Below are positions 3,001 to 6,000 of a stretch of DNA of 13,618 nucleotides, in pieces. Within the stretch, counting starts at the first letter, position 1. Each line of letters begins with the position of its first letter. This DNA comes from a virus (taxonomy: Duplodnaviria > Heunggongvirae > Uroviricota > Caudoviricetes): the IMG/VR virus record IMGVR_UViG_2690316086_000023. The stretch is one strand, 5' to 3'. The position numbers were made by a program.

Positions 3001-6000
3001 GCGACATCCTTCTCTTTCATGTACTCCAGCATTACGGCGTTACGTTCTGCTTCATAACTTTCGCTGTACTTACGGAGTTCTACTGACATCCAGTTAAACG
3101 CATTGATATAGGCTTCTTTAACAGCATCGGCTTTTGCCCCGTTAAATCCCATAACCAGCATAACGAAGCCACTAAAGTCCATGCGGTAGTAAATCTGTTT
3201 CTTGTCAAAAATACCTAAGTCATTGATTTTCTCGACGGCCCAAAAATGGGTTGTCGAGAATTCCTCAGAACATCTCAAACATTTAATAGCCCTAATCACA
3301 TGCTGATGGCGTTTACCAAATGCCCTGGCAATCTGGAAGGTGTCAGTTACCGGTTGACCTTCTGCTGCGGTAACTAACTGGCGAAAGTCGAAGTCATGAT
3401 TCGCAATTAATTCATTCATGGCGTTGCCTGCTTCTTTGAAATGAACCTTTGCCGCACAGGAAACCAGCCCACCGAGGCTCGCCAGCACTAACTGGTATCC
3501 TCAAAGGCCCATTCCAAAGGGTCAGGTTCGGTGTTTATTGTGCGCTGCGGTGCGCGGTGAAATACCGGTACAAAAATGCCCCGCATCTGCGAGGCATTTT
3601 CCTGAAAGTCACTTGTTAAATTTCAGTGAAATTAAAATTATTTTAAGCACTGCGTCCTGATGTATTCCTGCAGGTAGTTAACCTGCGCGGTTATCTTGTC
3701 GATTCCACCTCGGAGACGGTAATAATTGAGTTCAGCATCTGCTGTAAGTCCTGGGCTTTCTCCATCGCCCATGCTGCTGGCTCCGGTCGTTGACTTTGCA
3801 CAGGTGGCGGAGACTTGCAGGCGCTTACGACCAGCAGAAACATCAGCACGGAGACTTTCGATAGTCGCGTTAGCATCAGCAAGTTCCTTTGTATATCTTG
3901 CGTCGAGTTCTGCTACATCACGTTGACGCTTCTGCATATCAGCGATGATGGATGTGGCTTTATCGCGCTGCTCTTTGTAGGCGATGGCGTTATCACGGTA
4001 ATGATTAACAGCCCATGACAGGCAGACGATGATGCAAATAACCAGAGCGGAGATAATCGCGGTTACCCTGCTCATTGCTGCCCCCACAAACAGACTTCAC
4101 GCTCAATATCACGACGGGTCATCAGCCCTTTCCATTGCTTACCGCCAGCGTATGTCCAGCGACGTAGCTGGTCACATGCGCCTTTGATATCACCCTGGTT
4201 TATTTTGCGAAGAAGCGTCGATGTTCTGAAATTACCAGCGCCCACGTTGTAAACGAACGAGTAAAGAGCGCCGCGCGTTGTTTCCGGTATATCGACTTTG
4301 ATGTACGGGTTAATTTGTCTGGCGACCGTGGCAAGGTCTTTATTCAGGAGGGCTTTGCATTCTGCTTCGGTATACGTTTTACCGGGAATGATGTCTTTTC
4401 CGGTGTGTCCGTGACATACAGTCCATACGCCAACGATATCTTCGTATGGTATGTAGCTGACACCTTCCAGGCCATCGTCACCACTCGGACCAGTGATGAG
4501 CACAGACGCTATGGCAACAGCCCCACCACCAATAGCAGCAGCAACAGCCTTGCGTAATGATGGCGACATTATTCACCTCTCGCAGCCTTACGCTTATCTT
4601 CTTTAATCTTGAAATAAAGGTTTGTCAGATACGTCAGCAAGCCAAACACCAGGCTACCCAATACGCCTATTGCCACCCACTGGGATGGGGAGACTTTGTC
4701 CAGCAACTGCAGTAGCCAGTATCCCGTCCCCACCACTGACGTGGTGTATGACACACCTGTTGTTATTTTTTCCATCTGGTACATACCCCGTCTCCCGTTA
4801 TCCGGAAGCTGACAACAATAAAAAGCCACCAGTTAATTCCTGATGGCCCTGATGCATAAACGTCATAATACCTGACTGTTATGATTGACAATAATGATAA
4901 TGTTTATATAGAAAGGTTCCCGATGTGTGTTACATATCATTTCTCCACGGGGAATATCCCCACGCCAGCGCAGACTCTTTTACCCGTTCTCTTCTGCGCT
5001 GGCTCTTTTTTATTATGCTGCTGCATTTACCTCTGGCACCATGCTTTCTATCTCAACACAATACGTGGTACTTCTTGTAACCAATATCATAACGATTAAT
5101 CGACATAGAATTTCTCCCGTGTACAGGAACAGAGTTAAAAAGCCGGAACCGGAATCAAATCACAGGATGACCATCTGCCAGTGGCAGGTCATAAAAAAAA
5201 GGCCGCGCCATGCGCAGCCAGAACTCACAAGGAAAATGATAGAAGGAAATAACATTAGTGATGTACGCATGGCGCCTCCCGCTAAGTTCTGCAATGATCA
5301 AACAGAACTCGCTACGTGCCCTTAAAACTCGATCATTTAGCCCCTCCAAGGAGGATTCACCATGCGGTTGATTTTTTAATAAACAGTAAACAAAAAAGTC
5401 AAGAATTATTCATTCTGTTCTTTCATCATCGGCCACAGCAATACCACAATGCCGCAGACCAGAGCGCCATCAGTCAGTACCAACATTATCCTGCTGGTGA
5501 AATCCATCATCACCATCACTAAAAGCAGGATCACAACAGCAAGCAGACACAGTTTATAAAACAATGTTCAGAAAACGCATTCAGCATGCCTAAGGTTCTA
5601 TTCCTACGAATAGCCAACTTGCAACTTAAAATATTATTTATGCAGCCAATTAAATTCTGGTCCTTACAATATCAACCTGAAGATTCTTATCTTGTGCTGA
5701 TTGATAAATGACAAACCTTTTACTACCTGCATTGAAAGAAGTAGACAAAACCAGACAATTATCATAACGAGCAAGAACATAATACCAACCATCATTATAA
5801 TTAATCATTTCATATTCTTTCTTAAACTGTGGTTTGTAATATCCTGTCAGAAATGAAAAAAGCCAGAAATATGCCACAAAAGCAATCATCACAATCTCAA
5901 AAAAATGTTTTTTTATAAATGGCTTATCATAGAAGCATGATACCGATAAAAATCGCCCATAAGATCTTATCGAAATTGTAACCGCCAGCGCAATCGCTGC

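Follow-up and report, generated by a model that had tools for sequence, protein, structure and literature searches.

The late region of a lambdoid Escherichia coli prophage carries the gene for EcOnc32, an Hfq-dependent small RNA and probable paralogue of Esr41

The EcOnc32 gene in the window

The DNA examined here is the virus record IMGVR_UViG_2690316086_000023 of IMG/VR (Caudoviricetes), a stretch of 13,618 nucleotides (nt) that is referred to below as the window. It is a lambdoid prophage of attaching-and-effacing Escherichia coli. The late genes are on the - strand, in the order Q antiterminator, membrane protein, DUF3927 protein, class II holin, lysozyme RrrD, and Rz. On the + strand, between the genes for the DUF3927 protein and the holin, there is a short gene for a small RNA (sRNA). 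Window 4885-5012 (+) is very probably the gene for EcOnc32, an abundant Hfq-dependent sRNA of the O157 prophage Sp3 and of related prophages of enteropathogenic and enterohaemorrhagic E. coli (EPEC and EHEC), and a paralogue of Esr41 that acts in trans. The features of the gene are as follows, where clades A to D are prophage variants of the RNA and clade A is the window type.

4885-4890, + strand: -35 box TTGACA (within ATTGACAA), read directly from the sequence; the same in every prophage variant and in the promoter of Esr41
4907-4912, + strand: most likely -10 box, TATAGA, putative, with a 16-nt spacer; TATAAA, TATAGA, or AATAAA stands at the same position in clades B, C, and D
4872-4901, + strand: alternative overlapping promoter, CTGACT-18-GATAAT, from a promoter scan (9 of 12 matches)
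4922-5012, + strand: sRNA EcOnc32, about 91 nt if the 5' end is the Esr41-equivalent G; located by the Hfq peak, the northern probe, the 3' end from the ligation and sequencing of interacting RNAs (RIL-seq), and covariance model R1
4922-4938, + strand: 5' hairpin with a 7-base pair (bp) stem and a GUU loop, from folding; the pair G4925-U is A-U in other clades
4939-4948, + strand: single-stranded seed 1, AUUUCUCCAC, with the core UUCUCCA, an anti-Shine-Dalgarno sequence; unpaired in the fold of every variant, with a core that is invariant including Esr41
4949-4961, + strand: hairpin 2, GGGGA-AUA-UCCCC, from folding; clade D has GAGGA/UCCUC, a compensatory change of G-C to A-U
4964-5003, + strand: intrinsic terminator with an 11-bp stem and an 18-nt C/U-rich loop (4975-4992), from sequence reading
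4983-4991, + strand: candidate seed 2, CCCGUUCUC, within the terminator loop, of which no other part is conserved across clades A, B, and D
5004-5011, + strand: U-tract UCUUUUUU, which is the tail of the terminator and the 3' end that Hfq likely binds; fragments in RIL-seq stop at window 5012

The -35 box alone is not significant, as TTGACA is present 7 times in the window and 10.6 occurrences are expected. The -10 box is weak. TATAGA (4907-4912) is the only -10 that is retained in all of the variants, and its final base is not T. The -10 of the alternative promoter reads TATAAT in clade C and is lost in clades B and D. An RNA that starts from this alternative promoter (4872-4901) would be about 104 nt long, which is nearer to the published northern band of about 112 nt.

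The terminator stem consists of GCCAGCGCAGA (4964-4974) and TCTGCGCTGGC (4993-5003), which pair perfectly and are followed by TCTTTTTT (5004-5011). There is no T-run after the hairpin on the - strand, and the terminator can thus work only for + strand transcription. The original prediction for this DNA had named the TTGACA at 4885-4890, the 11-bp GC-rich stem at 4964-5003, and the T-tract, and had held that the terminator serves the + strand only. Each of these elements is where it was said to be, and the orientation is borne out. A consensus terminator scan missed the hairpin because its 18-nt loop is longer than the 8-nt limit of the scan. The RNA from 4910 to 5015 folds with -36.5 kcal/mol, compared with -20.0 +/- 3.1 kcal/mol for shuffled sequences (z -5.36), and 0 of 200 shuffles were as good. 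At the Rfam gathering thresholds no family was found in the window, and relations to Esr41 and STnc100 appeared only in a permissive scan. A search of the window for tRNA and tmRNA found none.

The window from 4860 to 5420 is an exact reverse-complement match to positions 901171-901731 of E. coli O157:H7 Sakai, inside prophage Sp3. Table S2 of Tree et al. (2014, Mol Cell; PMC4104026) lists EcOnc32 at Sakai 901574-901662 (-) as an orphan Hfq-binding sRNA of Sp3. This Hfq crosslinking peak converts to window 4929-5017 (+). The published northern probe for EcOnc32, ATATTCCCCGTGGAGAAATGATATGTAACACACAT, is identical to window 4923-4957 on the - strand with 0 mismatches. It is complementary to the + strand and therefore detects a + strand RNA. 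The window RNA and EcOnc32 are the same entity, as sequence, coordinates, strand, and probe all match. EcOnc32 passed in 5 of the 5 Hfq crosslinking data sets of that study. Its area under the curve of 64.7 million is the second among the rows of Table S2 examined, and its northern band is given there as about 112 nt. The ECs0816-ECs0818 intergenic region has rank 1 for Hfq-bound reads (PMC4104026).

A non-coding + strand RNA of about 100 nt with its own promoter and terminator had been predicted at this position, and the published EcOnc32 data (Tree et al., 2014) bear this out. The northern blot that was proposed as a check has a counterpart in the band of about 112 nt, obtained with a probe complementary to + strand 4923-4957. 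The proposed Hfq co-immunoprecipitation has one in the crosslinking found in all five sets, and the proposed mapping of the 3' end has one in EPEC RIL-seq reads that stop at window 5012, the end of the U-tract. EcOnc32 has been on record since 2014 and is not new. The name was not found in the main text of any paper in the literature searched. The record is a row in a supplementary table, without targets, ends, or homologue. HnrS (PLoS Pathog 2026) was also considered as the identity of the RNA and was ruled out, as HnrS is EcOnc10/11/12, a different RNA.

The locus is also present in prophage PP4 of EPEC E2348/69, with identity over the 171 nt around the RNA; the region 4560-5600 differs at 3 of 1041 positions. 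The EPEC copy of the RNA is filed under an annotated coding sequence, E2348C_1013. In the data of Pearl Mizrahi et al. (2021; PMC8550237), E2348C_1013 has a baseMean of 2064, versus 5.4 for the adjacent holin. It is 7.5-fold lower in the hfq deletion strain than in the wild type (log2 fold change -2.91, adjusted p 1e-23). E2348C_1013 is RNA2 in 100% of its RIL-seq chimeras (PMC8550237) and thus behaves as the sRNA partner. All of its RNA2 reads stop at EPEC 1060613 (window 5012), where the U-tract ends. In the count of other fragments, about 808,000 of about 18 million belong to E2348C_1013; the same table gives about 47,000 for PasC and about 24,000 for PasD1 (PMC8550237). The partners under the activating condition were the start region of rpoS (537 chimeras), the 5' untranslated region (5'UTR) of entC (263 chimeras, p 4e-165), an intergenic region of the island IE2 (72 chimeras), and the 5'UTR of dnaK (28 chimeras).

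Lysogens make a + strand RNA of about 90-110 nt, which is one of the most heavily Hfq-bound RNAs and depends on Hfq for its accumulation. The ligation products formed on Hfq join EcOnc32, each time as the sRNA member, with a small number of cellular mRNAs. The list of new sRNAs of Pearl Mizrahi et al. (2021; PMC8550237) does not include the RNA. Because the interactome lists it under a spurious coding-sequence label, it is missing from the count of EPEC sRNAs. EcOnc32 is among the most heavily Hfq-bound RNAs in both EHEC Sakai and EPEC E2348/69, yet it is known by a table row only.

That label belongs to an open reading frame (ORF) of 132 amino acids (aa).

4927-5325, + strand: annotated 132-aa 'hypothetical protein' ECs_0817 / E2348C_1013 / WP_012578864.1 (RefSeq), which spans both sRNA genes of the locus and both terminators

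It is extremely unlikely that the region encodes a protein, whether this ORF or a 58-aa ORF from ATG 4923. RefSeq annotates the 132-aa ORF in Sakai, PV15-279, and E2348/69, and AGAAAGG is found 6 nt before ATG 4923. Both ORFs, however, read through the strong EcOnc32 terminator, where the transcript ends, and the 132-aa ORF in addition crosses the PasD1-like sRNA, with its terminator, in antisense orientation. A Pfam search of the 132-aa ORF found no family above the cut-off. Clade B has a 1-nt insertion in the terminator stem, by which the hairpin is preserved and the frame of the ORF is shifted. The Prokaryotic Genome Annotation Pipeline calls the 132-aa ORF frameshifted or pseudo in clade B prophages and in prophage PP2 of E2348/69. 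ATG 4923 is ATA in clades B, C, and D. A ribosome-profiling study of Sakai has no novel small gene at these coordinates, which is weak negative evidence. The 132-aa ORF is probably a spurious mis-annotation. The earlier view that the RNA is non-coding is supported by the frame-breaking insertion with the hairpin kept, in one clade, and by the change of ATG 4923 to ATA in most variants.

Variants and the relation to Esr41

The sequences found by pattern scans and BLAST fall into five clades: the window type (A), B, C, D, and Esr41. The variant clades were obtained with the pattern TTCTCCAYGRGGN{8,12}CGCCRGC on viral contigs. On genome contigs, the same pattern gave nearly all chance matches in GC-rich genomes and one Shigella Esr41 locus. 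In the phage collection, the RNA was found in a single record, phage Evi. Among 5426 complete E. coli genomes, EcOnc32 is present in 603 and Esr41 in 695, and 564 of the 603 EcOnc32 copies are at least 99% identical. In clades A to D the RNA has a moron gene (DUF3927/TerB or SASA esterase) on one side and the holin on the other, and it is antisense to the late operon.

The same fold is found in all five clades, three hairpins with an unpaired UUCUCCA between the first two. Several changes preserve the pairing. In hairpin 1 a G-U pair becomes A-U, and in hairpin 2 of clade D GGGGA/UCCCC becomes GAGGA/UCCUC. The terminator stem is kept despite C-G to U-A (clade C), G-C to G-U, and a bulge. RNAalifold reported 21 pairs, 3 of which are changed on both sides. 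The MAFFT alignments shift clade D and Esr41 by 1-2 columns in the region of the seed and hairpin 2. Because of these shifts, some of the 'broken' pairs in the RNAalifold result are alignment artefacts, and they were rechecked against the folds of the individual sequences. Covariation across prophages had been proposed as a check on the RNA. The hairpins and the -35 box are conserved, with 3 of 21 pairs changed on both sides in few independent events.

The permissive Rfam scan matched Esr41 (RF02676) at 4924-5013 (+), over the whole model, with 32.3 bits and an E value of 5.7e-4. Covariance model R1 was built from the prophage variants alone, with Esr41 left out. It matches the window at 4922-5011 (+) and recovers the true Esr41 locus at 30.9 bits and an E value of 2e-5. 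Esr41, which is also EcOnc14, is Hfq-dependent. It represses chuA, cirA, and bfr and affects fliC and the locus of enterocyte effacement. Compensatory mutations show that it pairs at the ribosome-binding sites of chuA, cirA, and bfr.

EcOnc32 and Esr41 share the same three-hairpin architecture. The common elements are the ATTGACAA -35, a 5' hairpin that starts with GAUG, a single-stranded (C)AUUU(U)CUCCA seed, a small GGGG...CCC(C/U) hairpin, a GCC(A/G)GC/GCUGGC terminator with a U-tail, and Hfq binding. The two RNAs also differ. The 5' hairpin is at the same position in Esr41 but has a different inner sequence, and its stem is longer in EcOnc32. The terminator loop of EcOnc32 is 18 nt long and contains the conserved motif, whereas that of Esr41 is about 5-8 nt long and the motif is absent. 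EcOnc32 lies between the DUF3927 gene and the holin in a lambdoid prophage, whereas the true Esr41 locus is in the island SpLE1, downstream of iha and between iha and an IS3 element. The partner of EcOnc32 with the top significance, entC, is an iron-uptake gene, which is in line with the iron regulon of Esr41. The two-way covariance-model matches, the common -35, and the common UUCUCCA seed suggest that EcOnc32 is a diverged paralogue of Esr41.

According to a preprint (Zhu, Shabalina and Storz, 2026), Esr41 matches are frequent near PasD; the loci concerned are probably those of the EcOnc32 type. The O157 strain PV15-279 has both EcOnc32, in an Sp3-like prophage, and Esr41, in SpLE1, in one genome, with the UUCUCCA seed in common. 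The co-occurrence of the two RNAs in O157 may explain the mild phenotypes of esr41 single mutants. A degenerate copy of the RNA is present next to stx2i (locus L008 2496-2573, +), at the same position. It retains the seed, hairpin 2, and the loop and scores 46 bits with model R1. It has neither the promoter nor the 5' hairpin, and its terminator stem is weakened. This copy is probably a remnant.

Predicted targets and mode of action

For each RIL-seq partner, pairing was predicted in the stretch that begins at the RNA1 read starts and extends 110 nt downstream. The score was the duplex energy plus the cost of opening both RNAs, and significance was taken from 150 dinucleotide shuffles per target. 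Seed 1 and its flank (4932-4948, ACAUAUCAUUUCUCCAC) are predicted to pair with entC from -13 to +3 (UGUGGAGGAUGAUAUG), over the Shine-Dalgarno sequence and the AUG. This predicted duplex has 15 bp, and 2 of 150 shuffles were as good. Seed 1 is also predicted to pair with the Shine-Dalgarno sequence of dnaK (1 of 150 shuffles as good). For the terminator loop, pairing is predicted with rpoS at +54 to +61 (CCGUUCUC with GAGAACGG; 3 of 150 shuffles), through 4978-4987 with dnaK at -1 to +10 (7 of 150), and with the IE2 intergenic partner (11 of 150). A site on rpoS at -27 to -8, from the first restricted prediction, was dropped, as the RIL-seq RNA1 reads start at -6 or later. An unrestricted duplex prediction gave meaningless long duplexes and was discarded.

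EcOnc32 would thus repress translation in trans, in the manner of Esr41, by placing an anti-Shine-Dalgarno seed on ribosome-binding sites. The best predicted case is seed 1 on entC, a gene of enterobactin synthesis, where the Shine-Dalgarno sequence and the AUG would both be covered. The conserved CCCGUUCUC in the 18-nt terminator loop may be a second seed, for rpoS, dnaK, and the IE2 intergenic partner. A trans role had been raised as one possibility when the RNA was predicted, and the EPEC RIL-seq partners and the homology to Esr41 support it.

Several observations weigh against EcOnc32 as a trans-acting paralogue of Esr41. The Rfam score of 32.3 bits is far below the gathering threshold of 102 bits, which indicates a relative and not a curated member. 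The northern estimate of about 112 nt is larger than the 91 nt expected from an Esr41-like start. The covariation comes from about five clades and thus from few independent events. The pairings are predictions that were made after the list of RIL-seq partners had been seen, and each is only modestly better than the shuffles. Chimeras make up only about 0.1% of the Hfq-bound fragments of this RNA in EPEC, so most of the EcOnc32 is on Hfq without a captured partner. In addition, rpoS is annotated as frameshifted in E2348/69.

An action mainly in cis would be an alternative, in which base pairing of the RNA to the Q-antiterminated late mRNA upstream of the holin, or collisions caused by its strong head-on promoter, would brake the lysis genes. 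The predicted antisense position relative to the holin/endolysin leader was correct: the gene lies within the late transcription unit, on the other strand, and over its full length it is complementary to the late transcript, at 138-228 nt upstream of the holin ATG (4784). All prophage variants retain this antisense orientation beside the holin, and convergent pairs are found in at least eight Sakai prophages with a purpose that is stated as unclear. The closest relative, Esr41, works in trans, however, and does so from an island without nearby lysis genes. In uninduced cells, which contain few late transcripts, EcOnc32 is abundant on Hfq and has partners in trans. The holin leader is not among the listed chimeras, though under those conditions the late mRNA is barely expressed. 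Action mainly in cis appears unlikely, and roles in cis and in trans are not mutually exclusive. Still less probable is that EcOnc32 works mainly as a sponge for sRNAs or a competitor for Hfq, in the way of the anti-sRNAs AgvB and AsxR. It shares their genomic slot, and it has a very high Hfq occupancy with a low fraction of chimeras. The AgvB and AsxR models of Rfam (RF02702 and RF02703), however, have no match in 4600-5700 even at E values up to 10, and EcOnc32 is 90-110 nt long, whereas RNAs of that family are 51-60 nt long and have a conserved 3' region of about 42 nt. None of the four RIL-seq partners of EcOnc32 under the activating condition is an sRNA; three are regions of mRNAs and one is intergenic. 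The seed of EcOnc32 is that of the mRNA-targeting Esr41.

For the trans-acting paralogue of Esr41, a more detailed and tentative version can be proposed, in which EcOnc32 has two seeds. Seed 1 would shut entC and possibly the Esr41 iron regulon, the loop seed would engage rpoS and dnaK, and head-on transcription would delay lysis. This combination is possible but rather doubtful. If it were true, one prophage RNA would link the iron and stress physiology of the host with the control of lysis, partly redundantly with Esr41 in O157. The link to Esr41 and the captured partners entC, rpoS, and dnaK point to a testable function for EcOnc32, which would be a prophage-borne regulator of siderophore synthesis and stress responses. 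The relation to Esr41, the predicted pairings of the two seeds, and the probable mis-annotation of the 132-aa ORF are new here. That relation, the hidden RIL-seq partners, and the possible loop seed are leads for function and not discoveries of a new kind.

The convergent partner and related cassettes

Three further features near the EcOnc32 gene are on the - strand.

4569-4784, - strand: class II holin gene, the first of the lysis cassette, from the annotation of identical DNA
4822-4850, - strand: terminator-like hairpin of 11 pairs followed by TTATTGTTGT, between the sRNA promoter and the holin start, from a terminator scan
5193-5365, - strand: convergent partner sRNA, a homologue of EcOnc13/PasD1 that is STnc100-like, with a terminator at 5219-5201

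The hairpin at 4822-4850 could shield the lysis genes from transcription that is not modified by Q. The partner sRNA was found through a match to STnc100 at 5190-5395 (-), with 37.7 bits, below the gathering threshold of 47, and it ends at the strong terminator 5219-5201. The PasD northern probe is window 5210-5233, PasD1 of EPEC E2348/69 is 5365-5193, and the EcOnc13 peak is 5209-5259. This RNA has its own -35, TTGACT, near 5400. The printed EcOnc13 probe, TTTTCTAACACATCTATTATCAGACCGGCAACAAC (Tree et al., 2014), has no match in the window even at 3 mismatches, though the EcOnc13 peak maps to 5209-5259. The probe entry may belong to another locus.

EcOnc32 and the EcOnc13/PasD1 homologue converge, and their 3' ends are about 180 nt apart. 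The pair (4922-5012 on the + strand and 5365-5193 on the - strand) has Q upstream and the holin downstream and is a member of the convergent pairs of such prophages. Its slot, from the late promoter/moron region to the holin, is occupied by other sRNA cassettes in related prophages. Tree et al. (2014; PMC4104026) named Sp3 among the prophages that have convergent sRNA pairs downstream of the late promoter PR'. According to a later review, such pairs lie between late promoter and lysis genes in at least eight prophages of Sakai, for a reason that was stated as unclear (Sy and Tree, 2021). The pairs AsxR/EcOnc27 and AgvB/EcOnc06 have the same slot, a convergent layout, a late-strand member that is STnc100/PasD-like, and two Hfq-bound partners. 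The antisense member is an anti-sRNA of 51-60 nt of the AgvB/AsxR type in other prophages, whereas here it is of the Esr41 type. The locus is thus a convenient case for the question of why lambdoid prophages keep convergent sRNA pairs upstream of the lysis genes.

PasA and PasC of EPEC E2348/69 (Pearl Mizrahi et al., 2021; Zhu, Shabalina and Storz, 2026 preprint) occupy the same holin-side slot in the same antisense orientation. They have the TTGACAA -35 and the GCCAGC...GCUGGC terminator in common with EcOnc32. PasC also has in common the 3' flank TTTTTTTATTATGCTGC...GCATTT and the ACCCGUU motif. The bodies of PasA and PasC are unrelated to EcOnc32, with neither the 5' hairpin nor the UUCUCCA seed, and their RIL-seq partners are different. 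They were rejected as members of the same family, as they reach only 14-19 bits with model R1 and only the -35, the terminator, and the flank are common. Prophage PP2 of E2348/69 has two tandem sRNA cassettes in the same slot (L009 2740-3080, -, which is 743240-743580). One is PasA and the next ends at the 'minor' 3' end of PasA, and both have a -35 TTGACA and a terminator of the form GCCAGC...GCTGGC. Window 5006-5030 has the 3' flank TTTTTTTATTATGCTGCCGGTGCATTT in common with PasC and with the second cassette. The common 3' flank suggests an exchange of cassettes by recombination at the terminator.

A candidate for PR', TTGCAA-17-TATACT, is present at 6566-6594 (-), at the end of the Q gene. 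It is followed after about 35 nt by a strong terminator at 6511-6532 (-), and in Stx phages the short StxS-type RNA arises from this arrangement. In PV15-279, which has the matching locus (comparison of window 1-4000), truncated fragments of terminase and tail fibre come after the lysis cassette, and the type III secretion system effector genes nleB2, nleC, and nleH1-1 come after these. Sp3 of Sakai retains its morphogenesis genes, unlike the prophage of PV15-279. The prophage around EcOnc32 is defective in some strains.

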